This document shows, piece after piece, positions 9,454 through 28,122 of a stretch of DNA of 28,262 bases. The notes beneath the pieces are model-generated. The model ran no database searches. It saw only the letters and a program-made list of their open reading frames with translations, and had not been told where the DNA came from. How positions within the stretch are numbered: the first letter of the stretch is position 1; each line of letters begins with the position of its first letter. The stretch spans positions 1 to 28,262 of the forward strand of contig JAIPFO010000001.1 of assembly GCA_021736565.1 (NCBI GenBank), given 5' to 3'. This DNA is from Phycisphaerae bacterium (lineage in GTDB: Bacteria > Planctomycetota > Phycisphaerae > Sedimentisphaerales > SM23-30). Position numbers and translations under genes: made by a program.

Positions 9454-9460
9454 ACAAAAT

Positions 9461-9555
9461 TGACGCCAGCGTCAAACCCCGACAGACCGGGATTTGAAGC
9501 CCATTTTCCGCATCCGAAGATGCGATTTTAAAGCCGAAAAATGACTTTTGGCGTG
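9461..9555 (+). repeat. Intergenic GCGTCA...TGACGCG repeat, copy A
   Basis: tgacgc-ca-gcgtca palindrome, then tttgaagcccattttccgcatc...atgacttttggcgtg. The last 64 bp align without gaps to copy B. Confidence 0.8.
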
Positions 9556-9656
9556 GAGGTCAAAATTATTATATTAAATGCACAGCCACTATCCCACAAG
9601 ATTGTTTCAGGTATGGGAATCGCTTTCACCATTTTACAAAAGTAAGGAGTTATTTT

Positions 9657-10766: not shown

Positions 10767-10772
10767 CGCCCA

Positions 10773-10849
10773 GCGTCATATGTGATTTTGACGCTCGTTT
10801 TCCGCATTTTAAAGGGCGACTTTAAAGTCAAGAAATGACTTTTGACGTG
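10773..10849 (+). repeat. Intergenic repeat, copy B (77 bp)
   Basis: gcgtca...acttttgacgtg. By hand alignment, 58/77 identical and gapless against copy C. Confidence 0.85.
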
Positions 10850-10902
10850 GATATCCATATAACATTGATCGTTTTTTTAATTCAACAAATTGAGGAATTT
10901 AG

Positions 10903-12348
10903 ATGCGAATTGCACCGTTAAATTGTCGCTTGAAAACAGCGGGCGTTTTGCTCGCTGTTTTTATTTGCTCACTGGCCCTGGCTCTCGGATGCATGGAAAA
11001 AAAGCGTACGGGGAAGCCCGATGGATCATCAGAGGGCAATTTTTCTATCTTACTCTCCGGAAACTGGATGGGGCATTTGGGGCCATGCGGATGCACGGAT
11101 AAACAACTTGGCGGGATCGACCGGCGAACAGAAAAGCTCCAGGAGATCGCACCTGACAAATCAAGGCGTTTGTTGATCGACGCCGGCCCATTGATCGAAC
11201 AAAGTGACCGGCAATCGCAGTTGAAATTACAAACATTTCTCTATAGTATGAAAGAGCTTGGCTATGATGCGGTGGGCTTGACACCTGAGGAAATAGTACT
11301 TCTTCATGAAACCATTGACACGACGCCAGCGGACAGGCCGGTGATTGTCTGTTCGAATATGAGTGCCGAGAACCGCAAGATCTATGGCGTCCAGAACTAC
11401 GTTTTCCGGGCCTTGAAGAGTAAGGGCCGGGTTCTCAATGCCCTGGTGATGGCGGTAGCGGATGGAGACAACATCAGCAACGATGAGGTCAGGGATAAGG
11501 TAAATCTGAAAGACCCTTTAGCATCCGTCAAAGAGATCCTTTCAAGCCTCAACATTCGGGCCGACCAGGGCTCCCCGGAAACGCTGGTCGTTGTGATGAC
11601 ATCAGACTCAAATGAAACACTCATGAGACAATTACAGGAGATCAAGGCGATTGATTTGCTGGTCAAGCGTGGTTTTTTTGACGAACCAGAAAAGATCGCG
11701 TCAAAAAAAGGCAAGTCCATAACGGTTACGACCGGTAAGATGGGAAAATATCTTGCCCAGGTGACCGTTCCAGGTGACGTTGCGATTAAAGCAGAAAACT
11801 TCGGTTTCAAGGCCGTGGAAATTCTGGATACCTTCAAACAGGACCCGGCCATTACCGCCATGTTTACCGACTATCAAATGCGTATGGAGTTGGAAAAGCT
11901 CATTGAAGAAGGATTATCCCGAATGGTCCTGCCCGATCCGGAAAATTCTTTTGTCGGAAGTCATACCTGCCAGCGATGTCATGGCGACATTTTCAAACAA
12001 TGGCAGAAGAGCAAGCACGGTCATGCCCTACTTAGCCTGACGGACCCGAAAGTCAATCGACAGTATGATCCTGAATGCATGGCCTGTCATACGGTAGGAA
12101 TGCGTTATGAAACAGGTTATCGGTCAATAGAGTCAACGCCAAACCTGGCCAATGTGGGCTGTGAAATGTGCCATGGCCCAGGTAGTAAACATGTCAAAAG
12201 CCCAAAAAAGAATCCTTATTTAACCGCATTTGTTGCGTGTGAAGATTGTCATGACCATGAAAACAGTCCACGATTTGAAGCCAACCGGGAACATTATTTT
12301 AAAGAGATCCGTCACTGGAAGAACGAACCCCGCCAGCATTGGAAATAA
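10903..12348 (+). CDS. Lipoprotein: UshA/5'-nucleotidase-like N-terminal domain fused to a tetraheme c554-like cytochrome c domain
   Basis: Lipobox LALGC; GHLGPCGC...GGIDRR...LLIDAG; four CxxCH motifs (CQRCH, CMACH, CEMCH, CEDCH). Confidence 0.88.
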   Translation: MRIAPLNCRLKTAGVLLAVFICSLALALGCMEKKRTGKPDGSSEGNFSILLSGNWMGHLGPCGCTDKQLGGIDRRTEKLQEIAPDKSRRLLIDAGPLIEQSDRQSQLKLQTFLYSMKELGYDAVGLTPEEIVLLHETIDTTPADRPVIVCSNMSAENRKIYGVQNYVFRALKSKGRVLNALVMAVADGDNISNDEVRDKVNLKDPLASVKEILSSLNIRADQGSPETLVVVMTSDSNETLMRQLQEIKAIDLLVKRGFFDEPEKIASKKGKSITVTTGKMGKYLAQVTVPGDVAIKAENFGFKAVEILDTFKQDPAITAMFTDYQMRMELEKLIEEGLSRMVLPDPENSFVGSHTCQRCHGDIFKQWQKSKHGHALLSLTDPKVNRQYDPECMACHTVGMRYETGYRSIESTPNLANVGCEMCHGPGSKHVKSPKKNPYLTAFVACEDCHDHENSPRFEANREHYFKEIRHWKNEPRQHWK

Positions 12349-12843: not shown

Positions 12844-14352
12844 GTGATGAGATATATTTGGCATATCAATGGAATTCTGGCGGCGGTAGCCTTAGGGGTC
12901 CTGTATTTTGGGCTTACTGGAATACCTAAAGCCCTGATAACCGGAAGCGATACCACCGGGACAGTTTCCAGTTCTATGAATGGTAAAAATGGTTCATTAA
13001 CCGATAACAACGGTGATACCGCCATGGTTGAAGCGGCAAGGCTATTCACGAGGCGGTTTGGGCCGCCCATTGGGACAGTAAATATCCTTATCGAACCCCA
13101 GAACGCTATTACCCAGGGAGCACAATGGAAAATTAATACCAGCCCATTCCTCAATAGCGGCCAATTGGCCCAGAGTGTCGCAGCGGGGAATCACGTGATC
13201 GGGTTTAAGGAAATTGAAGGATACCATGCGCCCAAACCATTTAAAATAACGGTAGGACGTGAACAAACAGTAAAGGAAATTGGAAAATATATCCTGATCC
13301 CCCCCCCGGAATATGGCAAGTTACGCATAACGCTCGGTCCTGAGGGGATCGTGGGCAAAGGGGGTAAATGGAAGGTTGACAAGGGGGAATGGCAGGAAAG
13401 CGGCGCAACTTCAGAAAAAATATTAGTGGGAAGTCATCAGGTTACCTTTGCCGGTGTGGCGGATTACGATCCACCGGCGGCCATGAGCGTTACAATTGAA
13501 AAAGATCAAACGGTAGATCAAACGGCGGATTATAAACGGATTGATTATGGTTCAGTACTGGTCAATCTCTCGCCAGAGGATGCGGTAAAAGCCGGAGTCA
13601 AGTGGCGGGTCAAAGGGAATTCAACCTGGTATCAAAGCGGCGAGACCGATATTAAAGCCCGGGCAGGAACCCAAACCATTGAATTCCAAGGGACACAGCG
13701 ATGGAAAGCTCCTGCCGCAATAGCGGTTGACGTGGTCAAAGATGAGCTTTTCACTACGGAGGCGGTTTTTGAGTGGATTATTCTCAAACAGGGCTCGATC
13801 ATTGTAAAAATCATGCCAAACGATTCCACATTAACAATGGCTCAATGGCAGCTCAATGGCAAAGGCGATTGGTACAACAGTGATGAGAAGGTCGGCCCCA
13901 TTGATGAAGGGAAATATTCGATCAACTTCAAGCCGGTCGCCGGTTGGAATCCGCCGGATGCGATGAATGTAGAGGTTGTCATTGATCAGATAAGCGACCT
14001 GGAAGCCCTGTATCGTAAGCCCAAGCCGGCCCCTCCAGCCTTCACCCTGACGGCGACTATTGTATTGCCGCCCAAGGGTGGGATTGTCTGGGTGAAATTA
14101 CCCAAGGCCACACGGGACCATGTATTCCTGATCGGTGAGATGATCGATACGGACTATAAACTTATCGAGGTACGACACGGCATCGCGGTGGTCAACCGTG
14201 GTGGGTATGACTTCACCTTGACGATTCCCAAGCCATCGCCACCCAAACTAGCCCCCCCGAAGTCTACGACAACAGAAAAACCAATGATACCTTCTCGCCG
14301 TCCACCGATCCAGAAATCACCGATACCGCGAAAACCAAGTATTAAAAAATAA
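12844..14352 (+). CDS. GspC-like inner-membrane protein: TM anchor, four ~80-aa Ig/PEGA-like repeats, C-terminal HR (GspC/PilP-like) domain, Pro/Lys tail
   Basis: N-terminal TM (GILAAVALGVLYFGL); four repeats G(T/K/S)xxx...W...G...F...(Y/W)xxP; FTLTATIV...GIVWV...VFLIGEMIDTDYKLIEVRHGIAVVNRGG; located just upstream of gspD. Confidence 0.65.
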   Translation: MMRYIWHINGILAAVALGVLYFGLTGIPKALITGSDTTGTVSSSMNGKNGSLTDNNGDTAMVEAARLFTRRFGPPIGTVNILIEPQNAITQGAQWKINTSPFLNSGQLAQSVAAGNHVIGFKEIEGYHAPKPFKITVGREQTVKEIGKYILIPPPEYGKLRITLGPEGIVGKGGKWKVDKGEWQESGATSEKILVGSHQVTFAGVADYDPPAAMSVTIEKDQTVDQTADYKRIDYGSVLVNLSPEDAVKAGVKWRVKGNSTWYQSGETDIKARAGTQTIEFQGTQRWKAPAAIAVDVVKDELFTTEAVFEWIILKQGSIIVKIMPNDSTLTMAQWQLNGKGDWYNSDEKVGPIDEGKYSINFKPVAGWNPPDAMNVEVVIDQISDLEALYRKPKPAPPAFTLTATIVLPPKGGIVWVKLPKATRDHVFLIGEMIDTDYKLIEVRHGIAVVNRGGYDFTLTIPKPSPPKLAPPKSTTTEKPMIPSRRPPIQKSPIPRKPSIKK

Positions 14353-14437: not shown

Positions 14438-14935
14438 CTATGGCACGTAAAGTCGCCATTGATCAAGTTCTTTGAAAAAACAAAAGCGAAAAGTGAATTG
14501 ATCGACCTGGAGTCGACGGTTCGGGCCTTTGCGATGCTTCACGACAATACTGGCACTCGCCTGTTGTGGATCATCGTCAAACGTAATTTCGACGGTGTCC
14601 GCATCCCATTGCTGGATAATAACCGTTGCAGCCGATGAGCCCAGCAGCCTTCGAGCGGTCATAAGCCCGATAAGGCGGGGGTCATTTTGGGCGGAGGGGA
14701 ATCGCCCCGGCTCGATATAATTCGCCAGGGTTTCATACTGACGGGCCGCCAGAGCGACCAGGATCTTATCCGTCATGGTCCAGATGGCCCTGCGATGAGC
14801 CGCGAATTGCTCATCAGCCCCCCCCTGGCCCTCCAACCGACCGCCTGACGGGGAACAAGACACTAAAAAGAACATCCCCAGGGCAATAACCAGGGAGCGA
14901 TGTAAACAAACCATTGAGGAACTAAAATTATTCAT
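14438..14935 (-). CDS. Small hypothetical lipoprotein, possibly NTF2-like fold
   Basis: Lipobox-like FLVSC after a hydrophobic stretch; helical N-half then beta strands ending in W-R-L-Y; divergent from gspD. Confidence 0.65.
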   Translation of the reverse strand: MNNFSSSMVCLHRSLVIALGMFFLVSCSPSGGRLEGQGGADEQFAAHRRAIWTMTDKILVALAARQYETLANYIEPGRFPSAQNDPRLIGLMTARRLLGSSAATVIIQQWDADTVEITFDDDPQQASASIVVKHRKGPNRRLQVDQFTFRFCFFKELDQWRLYVP

Positions 14936-15245: not shown

Positions 15246-18200
15246 ATGATGAATTCTAATGATTATAATATGCCAGAATCCAATAAAAATGCAAGTACCA
15301 ATCGTAAGAAATTTCCGATTCGGCCCGGCCATATATCCCGATGGCTCAAATCCCACCAACGGCTGATCGTGCTGGGGGTGGTGATCTTGAGTATTATGGT
15401 CTGGAGCGGCGCAGGGAGTATTGGTGCCGAGGAAAATAAGTCCGATAATCAGGACGTTATTATAACCGACGAAGATGCGACCCCTTCGGCTAAGGAAACA
15501 GATGACGCAACAAATGATGACCAGAAGGTTGAATCGTCCAACGACATGGCCGATGCAAACGCTATAGAGGAGTTCTCTCCTGAAGACCTCCAAATGATGG
15601 AATTGATGGAGAGATGGGCCAAATCAGCTGAAGAAAACCCTGGTTCAGAAGAATCGAAAGATCTGGAAAAGCAACTGGAATCGGTCATGGAAAAAGCATT
15701 GCAGAAGTCCAATCCGACCCAGCCAGACCCTGTTGTTCTGCCCCCCAAAAAACCTGTTGTCAAAACGCAAAAAAACAATCCGGTTAAGCCCCCCATAAAA
15801 CCCAACGGCACCAAGCCTCCTGTCAAGCCGATAAAGCCTGTCCTACCCAATAAAACTACAATCAAGCCTACCAAATCGCCTATTCTGACCACTCCGACCC
15901 AAACCAGTACAGCCACGACAGCAACCCCGGCGGCTGTCAATGAGGACACCGACGCTAAAGTCGATCCGTTTACTCCACCGGTTGACCCGGATTCAGTTCA
16001 GATCAAGGTAAAAGATGACATCATCGACTTACAGGTTCTGATGGAACATGTGGGTAAGGAACTTCAATTAAACTTCCTGTATGACAGCGAGACTTACCCT
16101 GTCGGGAAGGTCAGACTGCAGCAGTATGGAAAAATTCCCCGTAATATGTTATTACCCTTACTGGAACATGTATTGCAAAAAGCAGGTTTTTCAATGGTAA
16201 AAGATGCGCCCTACATTCGGATCGTCAAAGAAACGGATGTCATCAAGAGCACACCGGTTTTCCCATCGGCTCATAATAATTTATCTGATGCGTCACCTGA
16301 ATCGCTGGTCACTCATATCGTTGAAATTGAATATGTACAAGCCAGTCAAGTCAAATCGGCCCTGGCACAGTTTACGACCTCATTGATCACTCAGATACCT
16401 GAGAGCAACATATTGATCCTGACCGAATATCCCAACAAATTAACACGATTGCTGGAAATTATTACATTCTTGGACCGCGCCGGCCCGGTCTCTCGGATGG
16501 AAGTATTGCATCCAAAATATTTACCCGTACAAGACCTTCAGAAAAAAATTGAAACGTTGATGACTGCGTTAAATGCGCAGCAGGCGGTTTCTTCGGGCGG
16601 TTCTTCCAGCGTAAACACTCCCACGCCCAACTTAAGTAAGATGTCACCGGCGGATCGAATGAAATATATTCGTGATCAACGCGCCAGGAAAGAGGCCGCG
16701 GCGAAAGCTCCAGGGACTTCCAGCACCACTGCGACGACCAAGCCCCTGGCGGCCAAGATGATCGCCGAGCCGCGTACCGAACGGCTGTTTGTGATCGGAA
16801 CCGATGATCAGATCGCCCAGGTGAAGCACTTATCAGACCTCTTTGATGTGCCGCAACCCGGCCCGGATATCTTTCTTGAATCCCTGCCGATGAAGCACGT
16901 GGAGGCCAAATCCGTTGAATCCCAGATCAAGGCCCTGTTCACGGAATTATATGAAGCCAAACCTGACCCGGCAATGGGTGGCAGCGACGCGAGGGTACCG
17001 ACCCCCATCTCGCGGACACCAAGCCGCTCCACGCCAAGCCGTTCTGCGCCTAATCCAGAGCCATCACTAACCGGCAGCAGTCCGAGTCATGGTCCATTTA
17101 TGTTGGTGGATGAACGGGTCAACCGGATATTGATCGTCGCCTCACGGGAAATGATTGACCAGGTAAAAGATTTACTGCTCGTTCTGGATATTCCCGTACC
17201 GGGCGCAGAGTTTCATCTGAATGTTTTTGAGTTTGAATATCTGCAAGCCGCTGATGCCGCCGAAAAACTCAATAAATTACTGGAAGCACTCGCCAGTCAG
17301 AAAACGAAAGAAGAACCATCACCGCCGACACCGCCAACGCCTTCGTCGCGAACCTCTATTTCATCGCGGACCCCGGTAAAAACGCCGAGCGAAAGCGGGT
17401 TTATTAAGCCGGGCGATGAAGGCCCGTTCATGATCACTGACGAACGGACCAATCGGCTACTGGTGGTAGGGACCGATGAACAGGTCGAACGGATCAGGGA
17501 CTTGCTCACGCTGCTGGATGTGCCATTGCCAGGGGGGGCAATTGTGATTAAACAGATCAAGATCCAATACGTCGAAGCCGAGACGGTCAGCGGGCAATTA
17601 AGCGAACTGATCGAAGCGATCAATAACCCCGATAAGGCCAAATCAGACAGTTCTCCCTCCCCCACCCCGCCCACCAGTTCGCGAACGTCATACCCCAGAC
17701 CTCCAAGCCCGGGAACAACACCCCAAACAAAAGGTTTTGTCAAAACCGGTGACATGGGTCCATTTATGCTGGTCGAGGAAAGAACCAACCGGCTGATCAT
17801 CGTCGGGACCGAAGAGCAGATCGTCCAGGTTGAAGAGTTACTGGGCATGCTGGATATTGCCGGTATTCAAATCAGGCTGGATGTGGTCGAGCTGAAATTT
17901 GTAGAGGCCGAAAGCGTGGCCGGTCAGATCGCCGAATTGATCGAGGCACTTAATAGCGGTAAACCCTCCCAGTCAAGTGTTAAATCTGGAACGAGCGAAG
18001 GGTCGCAACCTTCAACCCCAATAACTCCGATAAGAACATCCTCATCCTACAGGCCCCCTCCACAGGCCAGCCCATCCAAACAACTCCTCAAGACCTCGGA
18101 AGGAGGCCCATTCCTTGTTACCGATGGTCGAACGAACCGGTTACTGGTCGTCGGAACAGACGACCAGATTCGGCAGGTGCATGAACTGCTGGCGGTTCTG

Positions 18201-21098
18201 GATATTTCCGGCGAAGCGATCCTGATCGAAACCTATATCGTCGAACATGTGAATATTGAAAAAGTGACCGAACAACTCATGGAACTGGTTCCGGCACTTC
18301 GCAGCGACGAACCCAATAAAACCCCCGGAAAGCCTTCTTCGAATCGCACGAGCAGCACACCAACACGGTCAATGCCCGACGGGCTCAGAACGCCCTCCTC
18401 ATCCTCGTCGTCGTCACAAAGCAGTCGCTCACAAATGGTGAGCCCCTCCGAAGAGGGTCCATTATTGATCGCCGACCCCCGGACCTATCGGATTCTTGTC
18501 GTCGGAACCCAGGATCAGATTTCCCAGGTCGGTGACCTGCTGGTCATACTGGATGTGCCACTGAAAATTGAGATCCTGCCCTACCAGATGAAATATATCC
18601 CGGCAGACACTGCCGCTGAACAACTCAGCCAGTTATTGCAGGCCATTAACGTTGACGAGGACAGCTCGTCATCATCAGGCCGCCCAAAAACATCGCCTCA
18701 ATTAGTCGGACCGCCTCAGCCAGGTTCCCCGAGCAATCGCTCATCATTATCCTCGCGAAATCGCAGTTCTTCTTCCGGCCAGGGTGTCCAACTTGTCCAG
18801 GCCACCTCCAGCGGGCCCTATCTTCTGGCCGATGTAAGAACGAGTCGACTGATTATTATCGGTTCGGCACGTAAGGTCTCTGAGGCCCAGGAATTCCTCT
18901 CGCTACTGGATGTAAAAGTAGATCGTACGCTGGTATCACTACCGGTGAAACATGTCGAGCTTGAAACCATAACGAACCAGGTGGCCGATTTATTGGCGGT
19001 TTTGAACGAGCAGGAAGGCGCCGAGGCCTCTAGTAAGGGGTTATCCTCCTCGGGCCGCCGGTCGACACGAAGCAACACGACAGGGCGCACCGCGAACAGC
19101 GGTGGGATCACCGGGGGCATCACTCCCACCAATCAAACATCATCGTCCAGTAACAGTGTGGGCTCCTTGATCGAGATCATCCCGGCAGGGCCGTTTTTAC
19201 TGGCGAACGAACGAACCAGCCATCTGCTGGTGATCGGCAGTGTAAAACAGATCGAGCAGGTCCAGGATTTACTGAAGATGCTGGATGTTGACATGAACTT
19301 CAAACTCTACCCCGAGCAGATAACCAACGTTGCGGCCAGTGAGCTGGCCGGTCAGTTAGGAAACCTTATGGTATCGCTCACGGGTAAAGATCAAGTGTAT
19401 GGGGCCAGCTCCAGTGCCGGCAGTGCACGGAGCGGTTCCAGCCGAACGGGCAGTTCTACAAGCAGTCGAACCAATACCCCATCCGGGCAGACCATGATCA
19501 AAGTCACCGCCCAGGGCCCCTACCTGTTGCCCGATGACTCTACCAATCGATTACTGGTCGTAGCAACCGACAAACAGTATCAATCCGTCAAAGATTTACT
19601 GCCGGTATTGGATGTGTATAATGAATTCGGCCAGCGCCGATTGAAAACCTATCAGCCTAAATATGTCAATGCGACCGAAGTGATCAAGATACTGGATGAT
19701 TTGGGGATCACCAATAAGAAAGAATCAGGCGATATGCGACCGCGGGAGCGGGCGGGATTACTGGACAGGCCCGACCAGAGCGTCATTGCCGGCCAGCCCG
19801 GTGAAATGGCCTTTTTACCGGGAATGGAAGAACCGGATGTCTATGTCGCGGTACTGGAAACAATGAATAAGATTTTTGTCTACGGTCTGGAGTATCAGAT
19901 CAAGGGCATTGACGAGATCATGAAACATATCGACCTGGACCCCACCGATGCGTTTGGTCAATATGAGATCATTCCGCTGGAGAACCAGGATCCTGAATAT
20001 GTGTCCGATTGGCTCAGTGAGCTATTGGACACCGACCGCTATGAAAAGATCGGAGAGAACACGAAACTGGTTGACGGGGCGGAAGGCGCCCCGAAAATCG
20101 TTCCACTGGTCGAGATCTATTCGATCGGTGTTCGAGGTTCGGCCCGACAGCGAGAAGAGATCAAGAAGATAATCGACGTTCTGGACCGGCGAAAGCCCCA
20201 GGTCTTTGTTGAAGCAATTCTGGTACAATTAAATGAAAGTTCCGGGTTGAGCCTGGGCGTTCAGTTACAGGAAATATTTAAATCCGGCGGTGATAATATT
20301 TCGGTCCAGACCCCGTTTGGCTTCGGAGCGACGATGGGAACCAGTGGCGTTCTGAGCGGGTCCGGGTTAACGCTCGGTTATTATGATACAGATTTTGTCA
20401 AGGCCTCCATTGAAGCCATGGCGGATGAAGGCAATGGCAAAGTGGTCTCCATGCCCCGTATCACCGTGAATGACAATGAAGATGCGACGATGACCAGCGA
20501 ACGGGCAGAACCGACAACCGAGGTGGTGCTGCAGCCGGGTTCTGATACCACACGGGAAACCTTCAAAGGCTATGAAACCGCCGGGACAACACTGACGATT
20601 AAACCGCATATCAGTGAAGGTGATTTTCTGCAACTGGAGATCGGATTAAAGGTTGACAGCTTTGATGGAAAATCCCAGGGCAGTGTTCCGCCCCCCAAAA
20701 ACAGCAATGATATTAAAACAAATGTTACGGTTCCCAATAATATGATCGTTATCCTGGGTGGTTTGAAATCTCAGAACAATGGCACCTCGATAAGTAAAGT
20801 GCCTCTGCTGGGTGACCTGCCGCTTATCGGGTCACTGTTCAGAAGCGTCAACCATTCGGAGACCAGCGGTTATCTGTATGTGTTTGTCAAGGCCCAGATC
20901 ATTCGAAGTCCGGAAGATAAAAATAATCAAGCGGACTTTAGTGACCTGAAACGAATTTCCGAGAAAGCCTGGAACGAGAAAGAATCCCGAAAGATCAATT
21001 TCCGTGAGAAGCCGATCATTCCGGGTATCAAAATGAAAAAAGAAATGGATGACGAAGGCGACTCCAGCAGCCGGGAGACATTTTCCTCGCCCTACTAA
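15246..21098 (+). CDS. gspD: Giant type II secretion secretin (1950 aa): low-complexity N-terminus, N0, ~12 Secretin_N domains, secretin core, S-like tail
   Basis: N0 (DLQVLMEHVGKELQLNFLYD...LLEHVLQKAGF); repeated DERTNRLxxxGTxxQ...LD units; D..KPQVFVEA, MPRITVND, GTTLTIKPHI, IVILGGL, KVPLLGDLPLIGSLFR; directly upstream of gspE. Confidence 0.95.
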   Translation: MMNSNDYNMPESNKNASTNRKKFPIRPGHISRWLKSHQRLIVLGVVILSIMVWSGAGSIGAEENKSDNQDVIITDEDATPSAKETDDATNDDQKVESSNDMADANAIEEFSPEDLQMMELMERWAKSAEENPGSEESKDLEKQLESVMEKALQKSNPTQPDPVVLPPKKPVVKTQKNNPVKPPIKPNGTKPPVKPIKPVLPNKTTIKPTKSPILTTPTQTSTATTATPAAVNEDTDAKVDPFTPPVDPDSVQIKVKDDIIDLQVLMEHVGKELQLNFLYDSETYPVGKVRLQQYGKIPRNMLLPLLEHVLQKAGFSMVKDAPYIRIVKETDVIKSTPVFPSAHNNLSDASPESLVTHIVEIEYVQASQVKSALAQFTTSLITQIPESNILILTEYPNKLTRLLEIITFLDRAGPVSRMEVLHPKYLPVQDLQKKIETLMTALNAQQAVSSGGSSSVNTPTPNLSKMSPADRMKYIRDQRARKEAAAKAPGTSSTTATTKPLAAKMIAEPRTERLFVIGTDDQIAQVKHLSDLFDVPQPGPDIFLESLPMKHVEAKSVESQIKALFTELYEAKPDPAMGGSDARVPTPISRTPSRSTPSRSAPNPEPSLTGSSPSHGPFMLVDERVNRILIVASREMIDQVKDLLLVLDIPVPGAEFHLNVFEFEYLQAADAAEKLNKLLEALASQKTKEEPSPPTPPTPSSRTSISSRTPVKTPSESGFIKPGDEGPFMITDERTNRLLVVGTDEQVERIRDLLTLLDVPLPGGAIVIKQIKIQYVEAETVSGQLSELIEAINNPDKAKSDSSPSPTPPTSSRTSYPRPPSPGTTPQTKGFVKTGDMGPFMLVEERTNRLIIVGTEEQIVQVEELLGMLDIAGIQIRLDVVELKFVEAESVAGQIAELIEALNSGKPSQSSVKSGTSEGSQPSTPITPIRTSSSYRPPPQASPSKQLLKTSEGGPFLVTDGRTNRLLVVGTDDQIRQVHELLAVLDISGEAILIETYIVEHVNIEKVTEQLMELVPALRSDEPNKTPGKPSSNRTSSTPTRSMPDGLRTPSSSSSSSQSSRSQMVSPSEEGPLLIADPRTYRILVVGTQDQISQVGDLLVILDVPLKIEILPYQMKYIPADTAAEQLSQLLQAINVDEDSSSSSGRPKTSPQLVGPPQPGSPSNRSSLSSRNRSSSSGQGVQLVQATSSGPYLLADVRTSRLIIIGSARKVSEAQEFLSLLDVKVDRTLVSLPVKHVELETITNQVADLLAVLNEQEGAEASSKGLSSSGRRSTRSNTTGRTANSGGITGGITPTNQTSSSSNSVGSLIEIIPAGPFLLANERTSHLLVIGSVKQIEQVQDLLKMLDVDMNFKLYPEQITNVAASELAGQLGNLMVSLTGKDQVYGASSSAGSARSGSSRTGSSTSSRTNTPSGQTMIKVTAQGPYLLPDDSTNRLLVVATDKQYQSVKDLLPVLDVYNEFGQRRLKTYQPKYVNATEVIKILDDLGITNKKESGDMRPRERAGLLDRPDQSVIAGQPGEMAFLPGMEEPDVYVAVLETMNKIFVYGLEYQIKGIDEIMKHIDLDPTDAFGQYEIIPLENQDPEYVSDWLSELLDTDRYEKIGENTKLVDGAEGAPKIVPLVEIYSIGVRGSARQREEIKKIIDVLDRRKPQVFVEAILVQLNESSGLSLGVQLQEIFKSGGDNISVQTPFGFGATMGTSGVLSGSGLTLGYYDTDFVKASIEAMADEGNGKVVSMPRITVNDNEDATMTSERAEPTTEVVLQPGSDTTRETFKGYETAGTTLTIKPHISEGDFLQLEIGLKVDSFDGKSQGSVPPPKNSNDIKTNVTVPNNMIVILGGLKSQNNGTSISKVPLLGDLPLIGSLFRSVNHSETSGYLYVFVKAQIIRSPEDKNNQADFSDLKRISEKAWNEKESRKINFREKPIIPGIKMKKEMDDEGDSSSRETFSSPY

Positions 21099-21223: not shown

Positions 21224-22942
21224 ATGAAAGAACAGTTACTTGAGATAGCTCGCACGAAGCAGATATTAGACGCGGAGATGTTGGAGCATTTCATAACCCA
21301 ATATGAATCGACCCAGAGGGGCGATCATGATGGCGATGGAGAGACTCTGGACGCGGCCCTGCTGCGTTCGGGCCATTTCACCGAAGATGAGATCTTGCGA
21401 CTTTTTGGCGAATACCTGGAGATCCCCTTCCTGGAGCAGATCCAGCCGGCGATGGTCCCCGCGCATTTTGTCACGTCGGTCCCGTCCAATTACGCGCACC
21501 ATCATCACCTGGTGGCGACCGACCAGAACGATTCGACGATGACGATAGCGGTCTGCAAACCGTTGAGTTTGTATCCGCTGGACAATGTCGCCAAGATGGT
21601 CGGCCGGGCGGTCTCACCGGCCCTGGCGACCAAGGCCACGATCAATACCGCGATTAACGCCGCCTACGAACAGCGAACGACGGTATTGGAAGATGTGGCT
21701 GGTGATGTCGATAGCCATAGCCTGGAAGGGCTGCTGGGCGACGCCTCGAATTCCGAAGACCTTCTTGATGTCGTTAATCGTCCGCCCGTGATTCGCCTGG
21801 TCAATGACATCTTGTTTAAAGCCCTCCAGATGCGCACCAGTGATGTCCATATTCACCCGTTTGAACAGCGGGTCGTCATCCGCTATCGCATCGACGGCTT
21901 GCTCTATGACATGCTCACGCTGGATTATCGTACCCTCCCGGTCATTGTCTCACGTATTAAGGTGATGGCAGGGATGGATGTTGCCGAACGTCGCATGCCG
22001 CAGGATGGCCGGTGCAGTGTGCGGATCGGACCGCGGGAGATCGACCTGCGTGTCAGTACCGTGCCGACGGCCTATGGTGAACGGACGGTGCTGCGTCTGC
22101 TGGATAAAAGCTCCGGGGTGTATAACTTGAAGGACTTGGGGCTGGGCGAATCGGAGTTTGGCCGGATTGATGAATTGATCAAACGGCCGCACGGTATTTT
22201 CTTTGTCACCGGTCCGACCGGCAGCGGTAAAACGACCACACTCTACAGTTTTCTACAGCGAATTGATTCGACGACAAAAAATATTATTACCGTCGAAGAC
22301 CCGATCGAATATCAGCTTGACGGGATCAGCCAGATCCAGGTGGCCACCAAAAAAGGAATGACCTTTATCACCGCCCTGCGTCATGTCCTGCGACAGGACC
22401 CCGATGTCATTATGATCGGTGAAGTCCGTGACGAAGAAACCGCTCGCATGGTGATCCAGTCGTCCCTGACCGGCCACCTGGTGTTCAGCACGCTCCACAC
22501 CAACGACGCTTCCGGCGCGGTCACGCGTCTTCTGGATTTCGGGGTGGAACCCTACCTGGTGGCCTCCTCCGTCGCGGGTGTATTGGCCCAGCGGCTCGTG
22601 CGGCGACTATGCCCTCATTGCAAAGAAATAATCCCATCGGATTCAAAACAAATCCAGAAGCTGGGACTCAGTCATGCGGGATTTGAGAAAGTCTACCACA
22701 GCAAAGGCTGTGACAAGTGCTTCCAGACGGGCTACATGGGGCGAACGGGGATATATGAACTCATGACGATCAATGACGACATACGTCAGGGCATCTATCA
22801 GCGGGGCACCGCCGGTGCGATAAAAAAATCGGCGATTGAAGCGGGCATGACCACGCTGAGAATGGATGGCCTTCGAAAAGTGGAAGAAGGCGTGACGTCC
22901 CTGGAGGAAGTTTTACGCATAGCACAATCGGATGACGTCTGA
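21224..22942 (+). CDS. gspE: Type II secretion ATPase GspE/PulE
   Basis: SDVHIHP, RYRIDG, DVAERRMPQDG, Walker A GPTGSGKTT, TVEDPIEY, LRQDPDVIMIGEVRD, STLHTNDA, tetracysteine CPHC...CDKC. Confidence 0.96.
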   Translation: MKEQLLEIARTKQILDAEMLEHFITQYESTQRGDHDGDGETLDAALLRSGHFTEDEILRLFGEYLEIPFLEQIQPAMVPAHFVTSVPSNYAHHHHLVATDQNDSTMTIAVCKPLSLYPLDNVAKMVGRAVSPALATKATINTAINAAYEQRTTVLEDVAGDVDSHSLEGLLGDASNSEDLLDVVNRPPVIRLVNDILFKALQMRTSDVHIHPFEQRVVIRYRIDGLLYDMLTLDYRTLPVIVSRIKVMAGMDVAERRMPQDGRCSVRIGPREIDLRVSTVPTAYGERTVLRLLDKSSGVYNLKDLGLGESEFGRIDELIKRPHGIFFVTGPTGSGKTTTLYSFLQRIDSTTKNIITVEDPIEYQLDGISQIQVATKKGMTFITALRHVLRQDPDVIMIGEVRDEETARMVIQSSLTGHLVFSTLHTNDASGAVTRLLDFGVEPYLVASSVAGVLAQRLVRRLCPHCKEIIPSDSKQIQKLGLSHAGFEKVYHSKGCDKCFQTGYMGRTGIYELMTINDDIRQGIYQRGTAGAIKKSAIEAGMTTLRMDGLRKVEEGVTSLEEVLRIAQSDDV

Positions 22943-22957
22943 CCCCATCGTCCTAAG

Positions 22958-22972
22958 TCAACTTTTGACGCG
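22958..22972 (+). repeat. Right-end fragment of the intergenic repeat (copy F)
   Basis: tcaacttttgacgcg, 13 bp before the gspF ATG; identical to the end of copy D2. Confidence 0.7.
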
Positions 22973-22985
22973 AGAGTTAATTATT

Positions 22986-24206
22986 ATGCCAACCTTTGAA
23001 TACATCGCTTTAGATCGTCAGGGAAAACAGGTTCGCGGCAGCATCGCCGCTGAATCGGCTTCCGCTGCGCGCAAACTGATGCGGACCCGGCAGCTGCATA
23101 CCAAAAAGCTGCGGTCTGTCAGCGAGGCATCCCACAGCGGCAGCTTTGAACTGGGCCAGTTATTCAGCAGTAAACGCCGGCGAATGGTCTTGGAGTTCAC
23201 CAAGCAATTGGCCACGATGATCAAGGCGGATGTCAAATTGACCGAATCGCTGGGGGTCATGATCGCGCAATCCACCGATCCAAAGTTCACCCAGATATTG
23301 CAGAATATCCGTGACCAGCTTCTCTCGGGTGAAAACCTGGCCGATGGGCTCAGGGAATATCCCGGTTGGTTTGACACGATCTATGTCTCGATGGTGCGGG
23401 TCGGTGAAGCGACAGGCAACCTGGGCCGATCGCTGAATCTGCTGAGCGAATATATCGGTAAACGCCAGAAACTGGAAACCAAGGTCAAATCGGCCCTGAC
23501 CTATCCGGCGGTACTGGTGGTGATCTGTCTCCTGGCCACCGTGTTTTTAATGACAGTCGTTGTACCGAAGCTGGCGAAGATTATTATCAGTAGCGGTAAG
23601 GAACTACCCGCCGTGACACAAATCATGATGAATACCAGTAATTTTCTGATTAGCTGGTGGTGGCTGGTACTTATCGCCCTGGCGTTTGGCAGCTGGATGT
23701 TACGACAATTTATCCGATCGAACAAAGGCCGGACCCTGTTTGACCGGTTGATATTGAGAATACCGGTTATTGGCGAATTGATGCGTCAGAGTATTGTCGC
23801 ACGATTTTCATCGACGCTTGCCGCACTGATTCGCAGCGGGATGCCGATTGCCGACAGTCTCAAGATCGTCGCCGATGTCACAGGTAATACGATCATGAAT
23901 AAAGCGGTTCGCGAGGCGCGGGATCGCATTATCGGCGGGGCCGATATCGCCACACCTCTCCGTGAAAGTAAAGTCGTCGGACCGGCGGTGGCCCATATGA
24001 TCTCGGTGGGCGAGCGATCGGGCGAATTGGAATCCATGCTCGTTACCGTTGCCAAGGATATCGAAGAAGCGACCGATGAGACGGTTCAGCGGATCAGCTC
24101 GGTGATCGAACCGGTGATCATTGTTGTCATGGCAGTCGTTGTCGGGCTGATTATTTACTCGATTGTCCTGCCGATCATGCAGGTGTCCGATATTGGAGGG
24201 ATATAA
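22986..24206 (+). CDS. gspF: Type II secretion inner-membrane platform protein GspF/PilC
   Basis: MPTFEYIALDRQGKQVRGSIAAES, FTKQLATM, MVRVGEATGNL, ALTYP, MISVGERSGEL, SVIEP. Start moved from 22932 to ATG 22986. Confidence 0.95.
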   Translation: MPTFEYIALDRQGKQVRGSIAAESASAARKLMRTRQLHTKKLRSVSEASHSGSFELGQLFSSKRRRMVLEFTKQLATMIKADVKLTESLGVMIAQSTDPKFTQILQNIRDQLLSGENLADGLREYPGWFDTIYVSMVRVGEATGNLGRSLNLLSEYIGKRQKLETKVKSALTYPAVLVVICLLATVFLMTVVVPKLAKIIISSGKELPAVTQIMMNTSNFLISWWWLVLIALAFGSWMLRQFIRSNKGRTLFDRLILRIPVIGELMRQSIVARFSSTLAALIRSGMPIADSLKIVADVTGNTIMNKAVREARDRIIGGADIATPLRESKVVGPAVAHMISVGERSGELESMLVTVAKDIEEATDETVQRISSVIEPVIIVVMAVVVGLIIYSIVLPIMQVSDIGGI

Positions 24207-24224
24207 AGCACAAGAAAACAAACG

Positions 24225-24268
24225 CGTACTCACGCGAATGCGTACTTCCGTACTTTTTAGATCGTACT
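24225..24268. repeat. Four spaced CGTACT hexamers between gspF and gspG
   Basis: cgtact at 24225, 24241, 24249 and 24263. Confidence 0.5.
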
Positions 24269-24397
24269 TGATTCAATGCGTTATCTCGCGGGCATGAATT
24301 TGTGTACAAAAAAAGTGCGAAATTCAACCGAATGAACCTTAAGGAATATGAAACCATGAAATATAACAGACACATTTTATTTTGTAAGGAGTTTTTG

Positions 24398-24859
24398 ATG
24401 ATGAGAAAGACAGTTACTTTAAGCAAGGACCGGAACCGTGCGGGTTTCAGTCTGGTAGAATTAATGGTGGTCATTGTGATCATCGGGCTACTGGCCGGCG
24501 TGGTCGGGGTGAATGTTATTGACATGATTTACAAAGGGAAAGTCGGCGCGGCCAAAGCACAGATGGCAACTTTCGAAACAGGTATTGATAATTTCAAAAT
24601 CGATACCGGCCAATACCCCGTGGAATTAGCGGAATTGGCCAATCCGGGAGACATCACCGGTGCCAGCCCGACCGGATACCTCAAAGGTGCCACCGAAATT
24701 CCCCTGGACCCATGGAACAATGAATATGTTTATGAACTGACCGGGGACAGTATCACACCCTATACCTTGTATTGTACCGGAGCCGATGGCATGGATGGCG
24801 CCGAAAATGAAGAAGGTCGCGACTTCAATGTTAAAGGTTACCTGGATGCTGTCGAGTAA
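24398..24859 (+). CDS. gspG: Major pseudopilin GspG
   Basis: AG|FSLVELMVVIVIIGLLAG, NFKIDTGQYP, PLDPWNNEYVY, GADG; TAAGGAG RBS before ATG 24398. Confidence 0.95.
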   Translation: MMRKTVTLSKDRNRAGFSLVELMVVIVIIGLLAGVVGVNVIDMIYKGKVGAAKAQMATFETGIDNFKIDTGQYPVELAELANPGDITGASPTGYLKGATEIPLDPWNNEYVYELTGDSITPYTLYCTGADGMDGAENEEGRDFNVKGYLDAVE

Positions 24860-24891
24860 ACATTACGCCGTGAACACCATGGACGTCTCCA

Positions 24892-25470
24892 ATGCTGATG
24901 GGCAGAATAACAATGACAATCCCAAAAAGTAAAACCTTTCGCCAGTGTTCCCCCAGCGGCTACGTTCTGGTGGAACTGGCGGTTGTCATTACCCTGATGG
25001 CCCTGTTAGTCGGGATTGTCGTGGTTCCCTCTGTTGGCCCGATACGCCGGGCCAGAGTCCATGACGATATTTCAAAATTTTGCCAGACGCTGCGATTGGT
25101 GGCCGAAGAGGCCGTGCTGCAAAACCGTCGGTTCACGATCGTGATCGATGTGACCAACGGCTATTACAACGTCTATGAAGAAAAGGCTAAAACCGATTAT
25201 GACATGTATGACGAACCGGTACTCGGCCAGGGAAGCCTGGATATCAGCTACATTGAGCAGGCCGTTTTCCAGGATGGCAAACACACGCTCTCAGGGAATA
25301 TGGAACTCAAAGCAACCCCGAACGGCTGGCAACAGTCGGTTCTGCTTGACCTGATAGATGACCGGATGGAGCAGCCCCATTACATCCGCTTTGACCAGGG
25401 GACCACCCGGGTCATGGTATCACGGCAGAAGCTGGAATTACCCGCGGTGAAGAAAGACCTATCGCTTTGA
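24892..25470 (+). CDS. gspH: Minor pseudopilin GspH-like
   Basis: SG|YVLVELAVVITLMALLVG followed by ...LRLVAEEAVLQ; follows gspG. Start uncertain (24892, 24898 or 24913). Confidence 0.8.
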   Translation: MLMGRITMTIPKSKTFRQCSPSGYVLVELAVVITLMALLVGIVVVPSVGPIRRARVHDDISKFCQTLRLVAEEAVLQNRRFTIVIDVTNGYYNVYEEKAKTDYDMYDEPVLGQGSLDISYIEQAVFQDGKHTLSGNMELKATPNGWQQSVLLDLIDDRMEQPHYIRFDQGTTRVMVSRQKLELPAVKKDLSL

Positions 25471-25503
25471 ATAACGGACCATCGAATGCCCGTGTGATAA
25501 ATA

Positions 25504-26256
25504 ATGACGCGAACAGATGTTACAACTAAAAATACCGCCAACGTGAGTGCCGAAACTCACCGCGGCCACCAGCGACCCGGCTTTACGCTGATAGAAGCGG
25601 TGGCGGCCATGTTCATTTTGACGCTGGCGATGACAGGGATCATCGTAGCCTATCATCGCACTTTGGAGTCCGTGGGTGAGCAGATCCTCCGGGAACGGGC
25701 ACTGGCCGTGGCACAACGCCATATGGAGTCTCTCCTGGGCACCCTGGAAGAACCCAACAGTATTGTCACGTCGGGGCATGATAAGATCGACCCGTTTTTC
25801 AACTGGAAGATGGAACTGAAACGGATCGCCGTAGGCGAAAAAAAGGCCCGTTCCGATGGGGCCAATACGGTGATCAGTGCCCGGGTGACCGTCTCGTGTG
25901 ACCGGGAAGGCGCCAAATCGTTTAAGCCGATATCCCTGACACGGTATTTTTCCAAACTCAAACCCACAGAAGGTAATGCCATAGCGGTGCCCCTGGAAAT
26001 GGAGATGCCCGAAGATGAACAATGGTATCAGGATCTGGAAAAAGAACTGGGGCGCAAGCCGACCCCGGACGACATCATGGCCCATTTTCTAAAAACGATG
26101 ATCGCCCCCAACGACAATGACCGGGACGCGGATAATAGACGGACAGAAAAGGACGATGGGGCAGGCCGTAATAAGGATAATGGCGAAAGTGATGTGTTTA
26201 ATAAAAAAATCGAGGTATTGAACGAAGAAGACCTTCTGAAATTATTGCAGGAATAA
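25504..26256 (+). CDS. gspI: Minor pseudopilin GspI-like with long charged C-terminal extension
   Basis: PG|FTLIEAVAAMFILTLAMTGII...ERALAVAQRHME...FNWKMEL; position between H and J. Confidence 0.75.
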   Translation: MTRTDVTTKNTANVSAETHRGHQRPGFTLIEAVAAMFILTLAMTGIIVAYHRTLESVGEQILRERALAVAQRHMESLLGTLEEPNSIVTSGHDKIDPFFNWKMELKRIAVGEKKARSDGANTVISARVTVSCDREGAKSFKPISLTRYFSKLKPTEGNAIAVPLEMEMPEDEQWYQDLEKELGRKPTPDDIMAHFLKTMIAPNDNDRDADNRRTEKDDGAGRNKDNGESDVFNKKIEVLNEEDLLKLLQE

Positions 26257-26258
26257 CG

Positions 26259-26843
26259 ATGCGGCCACATGCTTTTTCAGTATTAGAATTGATCGTGACC
26301 CTGACGATCGTGGCGTTACTCACCGTCGCGGTCCTGGGACTGTTGAATGGAACGACCGCGCAAAGTGCGCGGGTTAATCAGCGTATGGAGCAGATGGGTG
26401 CGATTAATATGTGCATGGACCGGCTGATGGATGATGTGATCAAGGCCGCTGAAGACGACACCCGGTGGCATGTTAAAAAAGGCTATCGTCAGCAAATGAA
26501 AACATCCCATCTGACCATCCAGCGAATGGGCGGCGGTGAAAAAAGCGACTTGATATGGCAGATCGACTGGATCGCCACGCCCAGTGAGGATGGCGAGGAT
26601 CTAACCTTATATCGCCGGGAGAAAACCGGCAAGAAAAATGACGAAACGGATGTGTTTATCCCGCTGTGCGAACATTTGTATTCGTTCGACGTGCAAATGA
26701 TCAACGAAGAGGGACTGGACGACCCCAATGCCGCCCCGGCGGTCATCCAGGTAAAGGCCGAACTGTTCCGGATGCCCGAACATGAACCGGATTTTTTACT
26801 GCCGGTCAATCAAACCTATTGCCTGCGGCGATTTGGCAAATAA
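26259..26843 (+). CDS. gspJ: Minor pseudopilin GspJ-like
   Basis: HA|FSVLELIVTLTIVALL...MDRLMDDV...LTLYRRE; position between I and K. Confidence 0.78.
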   Translation: MRPHAFSVLELIVTLTIVALLTVAVLGLLNGTTAQSARVNQRMEQMGAINMCMDRLMDDVIKAAEDDTRWHVKKGYRQQMKTSHLTIQRMGGGEKSDLIWQIDWIATPSEDGEDLTLYRREKTGKKNDETDVFIPLCEHLYSFDVQMINEEGLDDPNAAPAVIQVKAELFRMPEHEPDFLLPVNQTYCLRRFGK

Positions 26844-26877
26844 TCAATACCCCGATGGGGTGCGTAAGAAACAACAG

Positions 26878-28122
26878 ATGGAAAGACATTCATCACAATT
26901 GAATACGAAAGGCTCGCGCATCAACAAGCGAGGGTTCGTGCTGATGCTGACGTTAATGATGCTGGTATTGATCACCAGCGTGATCGTCAACTTTCAGGCG
27001 GACACCACCCTGCATGTGCGTGCCAGTACATTTCGCCAGGATTATGTGCAATGTCGGTACGCGGCCGAATCCGGAATGATTGCCGGGAAGTTTCTGGTCA
27101 TTGAGCTCCTCACCGATAGAAAAGCCCTGACTGCTATCAAACCCGGCAGCAGCCAAAAGAAGAAAACCATCGCCCTGGACCCCAATGCGCTGGACGACCC
27201 CAACACCCTCGACGACCTGATCAAAAATATACTGGCGGACCCCAATGCGCTGGAATTTGAAGAGGCACCCCTGGAAGAGAAATCCCAACGGAAGATGGAG
27301 TTACTTTTAAAGGAGAAGAGGATCCAGGTGGGCAAGGCCGACGTGTTGGTCCAGATCTTTGACGAAACCGGTAAGCTGCCGATGATGTGGGTGGCACAAT
27401 CCCCCTATATCGGCACCAAGGACCCCGATCTCCTCAAAAATCTCGGGAACTATCTCGGAGCCCCCCCGGCAACGTCCAGACGGGCTAAAAAAATTGCGGA
27501 TGACATCTCAAAACCCTTAAATATCCCCGCTGCGTTTAATTCTGTTCAACAGGACGGGAGCCGTACCAGCAGCTCCCGCCGTGCGACGAGCAGCTCTCAG
27601 CAGCAATGGAAAGTACGCGGGCTTCGCCTGTCAAGCAAAAAGCGAGCCGAACACAGCAAACAGCGGTACGATTCCATGGCGAGCTTTGCATCCACATGGA
27701 ACCGGGAGGTGCAACCCGACACAGATAATGACGTGCTACTGGAACCGCTGAACGCGCATCCCGGGGCATTTTCAGATTACCTGGGCACCTGGGGTCACGA
27801 CAAGGTCAACATCAATACCGCACCGGTCGAAGTACTTGAAGCGGCCTTAAAGCCATTGGGCGTCACACGGGCCATGGCCGAAAAGATCGTGACATTGCGT
27901 GAGGAGAAGCCGATAGGCCATCCCACAGCGTTACGTCAGTTCGATGAGTTCGAGGCATTGATCCCCGCGCTGGTCGCCTTGACCATGCCCTTGAGTAATA
28001 CCTTTACCATTCGTGTTACGGCCACGTTAGGCCGGACGGAATATACATTGTTTTCAGCGGTTTATAAATCCCCCTTTGCTGATGGCGGGATTATGACACA
28101 AGCTATTTATGCAGGAGAATAA
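26878..28122 (+). CDS. gspK: Minor pseudopilin GspK
   Basis: KRG|FVLMLTLMMLVLI (no Glu+5, typical of GspK), CRYAAESG, IFDETGKL, KVNINTAPVEVLEA, FTIRVTA. Start moved from 26782 to ATG 26878. Confidence 0.88.
   Translation: MERHSSQLNTKGSRINKRGFVLMLTLMMLVLITSVIVNFQADTTLHVRASTFRQDYVQCRYAAESGMIAGKFLVIELLTDRKALTAIKPGSSQKKKTIALDPNALDDPNTLDDLIKNILADPNALEFEEAPLEEKSQRKMELLLKEKRIQVGKADVLVQIFDETGKLPMMWVAQSPYIGTKDPDLLKNLGNYLGAPPATSRRAKKIADDISKPLNIPAAFNSVQQDGSRTSSSRRATSSSQQQWKVRGLRLSSKKRAEHSKQRYDSMASFASTWNREVQPDTDNDVLLEPLNAHPGAFSDYLGTWGHDKVNINTAPVEVLEAALKPLGVTRAMAEKIVTLREEKPIGHPTALRQFDEFEALIPALVALTMPLSNTFTIRVTATLGRTEYTLFSAVYKSPFADGGIMTQAIYAGE

Follow-up and report, generated by a model that had tools for sequence, protein, structure and literature searches.

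Organization of the adaptor gene

The subject of this study is a gene of a type II secretion system (T2SS) cluster found in a stretch of DNA of 28,262 nucleotides (nt) from a Phycisphaerae bacterium (assembly GCA_021736565.1, contig JAIPFO010000001.1, positions 1 to 28,262 of the forward strand; hereafter the window). The encoded protein, referred to below as the adaptor, is a membrane protein with four internal repeats. Its gene is the first of a gspD-E-F-G-H..K cluster, separated from gspD by a small lipoprotein gene, and the same arrangement was observed in orthologs from at least six lineages. The open reading frame (ORF) lies on the + strand and runs from GTG 12844 or ATG 12847 to the stop at 14352, thus encoding 502 or 501 amino acids (aa), respectively; an identical 501-aa protein is recorded on a second contig. 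The following features were distinguished, the structural ones with the aid of an AlphaFold (AF2) model and its predicted local distance difference test (pLDDT) values:

12847..14352, + strand: gspC-type gene, 501 aa from ATG 12847 (GTG 12844 also in frame); orthologs show 29-36% identity over the full length
12847..12927, + strand: short cytoplasmic N-terminus and single transmembrane (TM) anchor, aa 2-28; helix at aa 2-25 in the model, W6 and G23 conserved
12928..13017, + strand: low-complexity, poorly conserved linker, aa 29-58; pLDDT <50 over aa 28-53, variable in the ortholog alignment
13018..13071, + strand: juxtamembrane helix motif DS.L..A.R.FS.RW.PP.G, aa 59-76; helix at aa 60-72 in the model
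13072..13314, + strand: repeat 1, predicted PEGA/transthyretin-like beta sandwich, aa 77-157
13315..13548, + strand: repeat 2, aa 158-235; in a VIA structure search, model residues 156-234 match CnaB2 8bdw_A (Z 9.5, root-mean-square deviation (rmsd) 1.9 A)
13549..13791, + strand: repeat 3, aa 236-316; in the same search, model residues 236-312 match the carboxypeptidase D transthyretin-like domain 1qmu_A (Z 8.9)
13792..14010 (or 14028), + strand: repeat 4, aa 317-389 (end at 389 or 395)
14011..14040, + strand: Pro-rich linker of 10 aa, aa 390-399
14041..14229, + strand: homology region (HR) domain of GspC/PilP fold, aa 400-462; first-ranking VIA match, hhalign probability 93.7%, pLDDT ~95
14230..14349, + strand: disordered basic Pro-rich tail of 40 aa (12 Pro, 11 Lys plus Arg, 1 Asp/Glu)

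This layout agrees with an earlier reading made from the DNA letters alone (the sequence-only reading), which had placed four ~80-aa repeats behind a TM anchor at about 13072-14016, and a Pro linker and a small beta domain (about 14041-14226) behind the repeats: the anchor was recovered at aa 10-28, the repeats at nt 13072-14010 (14028), and the linker and domain at aa 390-399 and aa 400-462 (nt 14041-14229). The anchor coincides with the most hydrophobic 19-aa window of the protein (mean Kyte-Doolittle value of 1.87) and is conserved across 11 orthologs. There is no Cys residue anywhere in the protein and therefore no lipobox, which identifies the segment as a membrane anchor and not a lipoprotein signal.

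Ten full-length orthologs were retrieved at 29-36% identity, six of them with four repeats and four with three. Five elements are common to all orthologs: the TM segment, the juxtamembrane helix motif (S59, R71, P74, P75 and G77 conserved), the repeats, the Pro linker with a 65-aa C-terminal domain (consensus F.L.GT...G...G.AWIKLP.........VGE.I..Y.L..V..G.VVL.RDG.DF.LEV), and the tail, which is Pro-rich in every case, 34-110 aa long and of net positive charge. The juxtamembrane motif is also present in two repeat-less homologs, P0153 and P0154. Word-indexed homolog searches, with either the protein or the ortholog alignment as query, returned only the protein itself and one fragment, Pro-rich words having probably saturated the candidate list.

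The single-sequence AlphaFold prediction (pLDDT 36) was unusable, and a model based on an alignment of 48 rows was used instead. These rows comprised orthologs, one repeat-less homolog and 35 four-repeat segments of other proteins, with no Pfam-recognised GspC among them. The resulting model has a mean pLDDT of 88.9; the repeats reach ~97 and the C-terminal domain ~95.

Fold and homology of the C-terminal domain

In proteins of the GspC type, a TM helix and a Pro-rich linker precede an HR domain, which binds N0 of the secretin GspD, and the C-terminus is formed by a PDZ domain or coiled coil (PMC3169554). The sequence-only reading had noted a resemblance between the C-terminal domain of the adaptor and the GspC/PilP HR domain, and both structure and profile comparisons bear this out. 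When 48,161 PDB chains were searched with VIA, the top match overall was the GspC HR domain of enterotoxigenic Escherichia coli (ETEC), which superposed on model residues 396-462 with Z 10.7 and an rmsd of 1.6 A over 63 of 65 residues; this chain, 3oss_C, derives from a GspC-GspD complex. The HR region was further matched by PilP 3jc8_Pa (Z 8.6), GspB 4wfw_A (Z 7.7), the PulC HR domain 6hcg_e (Z 7.3), PilP 2y4x_A (Z 7.1), LspC 7oio (Z 7.0) and PilP 2ivw (Z 6.9). Homology is also indicated by an hhalign comparison of the C-terminal profile with the HR regions of six independent Pfam T2SSC-positive proteins from the same phylum (93.7% probability, E 1.8e-7, 60 columns spanning the HR core). Run over 401 genomes of the phylum, the adaptor HR profile retrieved T2SSC-positive proteins encoded directly upstream of gspD; its matches included a canonical 281-aa GspC with HR and PDZ domains (locus L028, T2SSC match at 1.7e-10) and the proteins of L030 (7e-5) and L031 (2e-4). 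A complex prediction for the HR domain with GspD N0-N1 gave a score of 0.00, which counts neither for nor against binding.

It may be asked whether the adaptor is instead a surface or periplasmic repeat protein, anchored in the membrane but unrelated to the neighbouring T2SS, that carries a chance look-alike of an HR domain, as could be suggested by the absence of curated family matches, the transcriptional separation of the gene from gspD and the wide distribution of the repeat family in unrelated proteins. We regard this as extremely improbable, given that the HR match ranks first, covers the whole domain and is joined by the independent profile evidence, that synteny with gspD is kept at 29-36% identity in every ortholog whose contig extends past the gene, and that the TM segment and juxtamembrane motif are common to repeat-less proteins at the gspC position.

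The structural match to GspB is relevant to another interpretation. GspB (OutB in Dickeya, 4WFW) is composed of a TM segment, an HR domain and a C-terminal extension of variable length and composition, and its gene is located near a pilotin gene in Dickeya and Klebsiella (PMC9239104). The adaptor, likewise a TM and HR protein with a basic Pro-rich tail and a clade-specific lipoprotein gene next to its own, could accordingly be a GspB-type scaffold piloting or anchoring the secretin with the neighbouring lipoprotein, while the true GspC is encoded elsewhere in the incomplete genome or is too divergent to be detected. However, the best structural match is a GspC HR domain (Z 10.7 vs 7.7), and the profile connects the adaptor to T2SSC-positive proteins and not to T2SSB, for which Pfam gave no match in the adaptor or its aligned relatives. 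In sister loci a homologous repeat-less gene is the sole gene at the gspC position. GspB homologs are found in beta- and gammaproteobacteria (UniProt search) and act beside GspC (PMC9239104). The sequence-only reading had named a conventional gspC elsewhere in the operon as one of the findings that would speak against it; neither such a gene nor a second HR protein was detected in the window, in the genome of this organism (a 2.94-Mb metagenome-assembled genome (MAG), 70.8% complete) or in a complete orthologous operon extending from the adaptor to ORFs at the gspL/gspM positions. In this MAG no match to PF11356 (T2SSC) was obtained, and the only HR-profile match is the adaptor itself. The closer fold and profile match to GspC and the lack of a second HR protein speak against the GspB interpretation; the identity of the adaptor as a GspB-type scaffold seems quite improbable.

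The four repeats belong to a large family

The four repeats are genuine despite their low mutual identity (~20-30%): the six pairwise local alignments scored 77-120, compared with shuffle means of 23-27 (z 12.7-22.2), and none of 500 shuffles scored as high. The G-x-H/Q/Y...P pattern with which, according to the sequence-only reading, each repeat ends recurs outside this protein: the form G-x-H-x-V-x-F...GW..P is kept in 11 orthologs and in 35 repeat segments of other proteins. Successive repeats are joined by Pro-containing linkers of 4-8 residues, and copy number varies within narrow limits (four repeats in seven orthologs, that of the window included, and three in the other four). Single repeats could not be assigned to positional counterparts across orthologs, all being about equally diverged.

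As judged from the model, the repeats are PEGA/CnaB/transthyretin-like domains, i.e. predicted seven-stranded beta sandwiches of ~80 aa. Individually they match carboxypeptidase D transthyretin-like domains at Z 8.7-8.9 in VIA. Foldseek searches of the PDB with the whole model gave only repeat-driven matches, to tandem CnaB/prealbumin-like stalks of Gram-positive pilins, SdrD and relatives, the HR domain going undetected. Among Swiss-Prot models, the B-repeat stalks of SdrD/E/F and the rods of NOMO come nearest; among ESM Atlas clusters, PEGA/CarboxypepD_reg arrays do. At the sequence level, neither Pfam PEGA (PF08308) nor any related model matched the adaptor or its orthologs at E<=10; the sole trace of PEGA was a summed weak match (2e-10) in the distant repeat-bearing protein P0007, with no single significant stretch. 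Neither the repeats nor the C-terminal domain found a match when the PDB was searched by sequence, and summed profile matches to designed 'Cake' propellers (~4 bits per stretch) were rejected as spurious.

An exhaustive HMMER search of 1.84 billion representative sequences yielded 2,745 proteins at E<=0.001, of which 451 reach E<=1e-30. In most of these proteins, which are large or giant (up to 5,869 aa), the repeat is the only part in common with the adaptor. It is present in up to 15 copies per protein, and its partner domains include CBM96, papain-like peptidase and thioredoxin. The ~80-aa repeat therefore defines a large family (~2,700 representative proteins) without a Pfam model.

Repeat-bearing adaptors occur with elongated secretins

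We compared the number of adaptor repeats with the length of the partner secretin, whose extra N domains were counted with an in-house profile of its repeated N-domain type:

Window: 4 adaptor repeats, 9 extra N domains, secretin of 1950 aa
L007: 4 adaptor repeats, 7 extra N domains, secretin of 1895-1910 aa
L041: 4 adaptor repeats, at least 6 extra N domains, secretin fragmented
L043/L135: 3 adaptor repeats, 5 extra N domains, secretin of 1569-1572 aa
L044: 3 adaptor repeats, 5 extra N domains, secretin of 1529-1548 aa
L045/L129/L131: 3 adaptor repeats, 7 extra N domains, secretin of 1836-1858 aa

Six repeat-bearing lineages have a secretin gene that is complete or nearly so and can be read; all six encode secretins of ~1,530-1,950 aa with 5-9 extra N domains and carry the lipoprotein gene. 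In 12 sister Phycisphaerae loci, a repeat-less TM and HR protein of 299-374 aa is encoded immediately upstream of gspD, and the 13 sister-locus secretins analysed (those of these 12 loci included) are 1,055-1,397 aa long with at most one extra N domain. The presence of repeats is therefore tightly coupled to secretin elongation, which supports the co-extension of the two proteins. This is in line with the sequence-only reading, in which both the inner-membrane coupling protein and the secretin were extended: repeat-bearing adaptors occur solely with the long secretins, and repeat-less ones with the shorter secretins of sister loci.

The repeat-less homologs also show where the repeats are placed. 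P0153 and P0154 share the TM segment and juxtamembrane motif with the adaptor and have a poly-Pro linker exactly at the repeat site. P0153 itself (181 aa; L027:7566-8111, contig 25 of genome G093) is the product of an orphan GspC-like gene in a genome of the same family, situated far from T2SS genes, among metabolic genes (for HlyIII, GNAT and glycogen phosphorylase-like proteins).

Genetic context of the adaptor gene

The remaining genes of the cluster, including that of the lipoprotein, are arranged as follows:

14438..14935, - strand: gene for a conserved small lipoprotein of 165 aa with lipobox LVSC; its homologs are placed between gspC and gspD
15246..21098, + strand: partner secretin gene gspD, 1,950 aa; Pfam and TIGR02517 matches above cut-off
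21224..28122, + strand: remaining T2SS operon, i.e. gspE, gspF, gspG, a gspH-like gene, two pseudopilin genes and gspK (Pfam/NCBIfam); the contig ends there

In GspD, a weakly matching N0 domain (aa ~256-330, nt 16011-16235) is followed by 12 Secretin_N stretches and the secretin domain (aa 1724-1887). The ~250-aa extension in front of N0 (aa 1-255; 15246-16010, + strand) contains a signal- or TM-like segment at aa ~38-60, an acidic stretch and a Lys/Pro-rich stretch recalling the Pro-rich spacers of TonB-type proteins. N0 begins late in sister-locus secretins as well (aa 260-480).

Homologs of the lipoprotein were found in every ortholog locus with a scannable gspC-gspD stretch (profile E 1e-40 to 1e-74, pairwise BLAST down to 1e-9), and none in the sister loci. 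Members of the family are 140-170 aa long with an L-x-S-C lipobox, and are encoded on the opposite strand in most genomes and on the same strand in L041; at L008, L042, L043 and L046 the public gene calls took the antisense frame of the gene. Language-model features point to an NTF2/DUF4440/SnoaL-like fold, which we treat as a lead only. The lipoprotein may be an accessory or pilotin-like factor for the giant secretin. Its three-sequence alignment, used as a query for related loci, retrieved mostly close relatives of loci already sampled.

An orthologous contig carries the whole operon, in the order adaptor, lipoprotein, D, E, F, G, three pilin-like ORFs and K, followed by ORFs of 491 and 180 aa at the gspL and gspM positions (L127:13674-15750). 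The latter two gave no Pfam match at E<=0.01, which indicates that the inner-membrane platform of this lineage also escapes curated models. The nearest relatives of GspE (56-63% identity) are encoded in MAGs of Phycisphaerae, Sedimentisphaerales and Anaerohalosphaeraceae, which assigns the organism to Planctomycetota. The MAG to which the window belongs contains six secretin genes (contigs C43, C200, C232, C171, C140 and C120) with open frames of 629-1,963 aa, and the profiles used detected only one HR-type adaptor in it.

Upstream of the adaptor gene, synteny is retained between positions 8512-12348 of the window and L007:3094-8023, where the adaptors share ~31% identity: both segments encode a histone-deacetylase-family enzyme, one or more DUF1573 Ig-like proteins and a cytochrome c554-like multihaem protein. 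In the contig of P0097, too, the adaptor gene is preceded by that of the cytochrome. Products of these genes may be cargo or partners of this T2SS.

A probable lengthened GspC beside a lengthened secretin

Taken together, these data indicate that the ORF probably encodes the GspC-equivalent of the T2SS: a bitopic inner-membrane protein whose HR domain would dock on N0 of the secretin and whose repeats would act as a rod or spacer, in a machine sized for a wider periplasm. The TM region of GspC joins the GspL/GspM platform. In the adaptor, docking of the HR domain on N0, the basal ring of the secretin, would couple this platform to the outer-membrane pore. A rod of four beta sandwiches would have taken the place of the usual Pro-rich linker that leads from the anchor to the HR domain, and the PDZ domain would have been lost. 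At ~3-4 nm per domain, a typical domain size, such a rod could hold the HR domain ~12-16 nm away from the inner membrane. The spacer role is proposed on the basis of the short Pro-containing inter-repeat linkers and of the stalk function of those domains that are closest in structure. The secretin of this lineage would have gained its 5-9 additional N-domain rings, and a small lipoprotein dedicated to the system would have appeared; with these three changes, the apparatus looks re-dimensioned for a much wider periplasm. We therefore propose, tentatively and with somewhat less than even confidence, that adaptor and secretin were lengthened together (3-4 rigid beads, 5-9 N rings and a new lipoprotein), allowing the machine to span an envelope 2-3 times wider than that of model bacteria. 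An enlarged periplasm has been reported for planctomycetes (PMC11131199), and the six-ring PilQ of Thermus, 35 nm (350 A) in length, spans the wide periplasm of that organism (PMC5745081).

Several observations weigh against this interpretation. Neither the adaptor nor its 11 aligned relatives matched Pfam PF11356 (T2SSC) at E<=10, and NCBIfam gave no match either. No PDZ domain or coiled coil was found at the adaptor C-terminus (Pfam, AF2 model). The lipoprotein gene between the adaptor gene and gspD is convergent, so that in this organism the adaptor is not co-transcribed with gspD, and a genome only 70.8% complete may encode another gspC. The co-occurrence of repeats and long secretins may trace to a single ancestral event and would then constitute one phylogenetic observation. 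Nor is there strict scaling: three repeats pair with 5, 5 and 7 extra N domains, and four repeats with 7, 9 and at least 6. Finally, ~13 secretin rings and a 12-16-nm stalk imply an envelope gap of ~60 nm or more, which is a demanding geometry. The correlation between repeat number in GspC and in GspD that the sequence-only reading had suggested as a check thus holds for the presence of repeats, but for their number only as a loose trend within the clade (n=6 lineages). The distance from N0 to the secretin domain is 1027, 1027 and 1256 aa with three repeats vs ~1199, 1302 and 1463 aa with four (overlapping ranges; one-sided rank p ~0.1), and strict proportionality of repeat number to N-domain number was rejected as unsupported beyond this trend.

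The lack of strict scaling and of a PDZ or coiled-coil domain would also fit a different role for the repeats, namely that of cargo- or glycan-recognition modules replacing PDZ-based substrate selection in a protein that would still dock on the secretin through its HR domain. Such a function would be compatible with the aromatic positions conserved in each repeat (W95, W176, W183, W254, W262, GW..P) and with the occurrence of the family in ~2,700 proteins, many of which are giant, exported and also equipped with CBM96, papain-like peptidase or thioredoxin domains. On the other hand, the repeats do not occupy the C-terminal site of the PDZ domain; their place is the stretch from anchor to HR domain, which in repeat-less homologs is taken up by a Pro linker. 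Their linkers are short and stiff, their copy number is narrow, their fold is that of known stalk domains, and they are confined to loci with elongated secretins. Recognition as their main function is therefore unlikely, and we favour the spacer role within a GspC-type adaptor.

Comparison with known systems

With GspC proteins (ETEC 3OSS chain C, PulC 6HCG, LspC 7OIO, PF11356) the adaptor shares a short cytoplasmic N-terminus, a single TM segment, a periplasmic all-beta HR domain and the gspC position upstream of gspD in a T2SS cluster. It differs in having four beta sandwiches (~315 aa, according to the model) in place of the Pro-rich TM-HR linker, of which 10 aa remain before the HR domain, and a 40-aa basic Pro-rich tail in place of the PDZ domain or coiled coil. 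It also falls below all Pfam and NCBIfam thresholds, has a juxtamembrane helix motif, and is followed by an opposite-strand lipoprotein gene before gspD.

The repeat-less planctomycetal GspCs (sister loci L030 and L047-L062, and the orphan P0153) resemble the adaptor in their TM anchor, juxtamembrane motif and HR domain, and those of the sister loci also in their position upstream of gspD, with GspE proteins 56-63% identical to that of the window. They differ in having a poly-Pro linker instead of the repeats, so that the HR domain starts at aa ~100-120; the C-terminal tail of the sister-locus proteins is ~150-200 aa long, whereas P0153 ends right after the HR domain. PilP (2IVW, 2Y4X, 3JC8 chain Pa) has the same core beta-sandwich fold (Z 6.9-8.6) and, presumably, the same docking site on secretin N0, but it is a lipoprotein of the pilMNOPQ system, whereas the adaptor has a TM anchor, contains no Cys and is encoded in a gspD-K operon. 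In GspB/OutB the combination of TM segment, HR domain and C-terminal extension and the neighbouring lipoprotein gene recur; as discussed above, GspB works besides GspC in proteobacteria, and the fold and profile of the adaptor are nearer to GspC.

Chains of ~80-aa beta sandwiches with short linkers, which project or space a functional domain, are known from the B repeats of SdrD/SdrE, from Gram-positive pilins and from NOMO1. These stalks, however, are located on Gram-positive cell walls or in the lumen of the endoplasmic reticulum and show 10-17% identity to the adaptor repeats. The adaptor itself combines a TM anchor, the gspC position in a T2SS operon and a copy number that varies little and goes with secretin elongation. 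To our knowledge, tandem CnaB/transthyretin-like stalks have not been described in any T2SS adaptor, nor has a matching lengthened HR adaptor been described for the PilQ secretin of Thermus thermophilus. A literature search found no paper on a GspC with folded (PEGA) repeats or on T2SSs or secretins of Phycisphaerae. The closest parallel on the secretin side is Thermus PilQ itself, which is lengthened by extra N rings for a wide periplasm (PMC5745081), but belongs to a type IV pilus/DNA-uptake system and has six rings as opposed to ~13.

Implications

Pfam PF11356 at E<=1e-5 matches just 6 of the 401 sampled genomes of the phylum. Curated models (Pfam T2SSC, NCBIfam) therefore largely miss the GspC proteins of this phylum, and its T2SS operons would be annotated as lacking gspC.

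As far as we know, the inner-membrane platform and the secretin are physically linked by GspC alone, and all T2SSs studied so far come from proteobacteria with similar periplasms. If the proposed co-extension is correct, the system described here would be a natural 'ruler', showing how trans-envelope machines set their length, and the length of GspC would be a tuned structural parameter, not that of a flexible tether. With GspC variants containing 0, 3 or 4 spacer domains, folded according to the model, and secretins with ~4 to ~13 predicted periplasmic rings, this clade lends itself to comparative study of how lengths are matched in trans-envelope machines and of how wide the planctomycetal periplasm really is.

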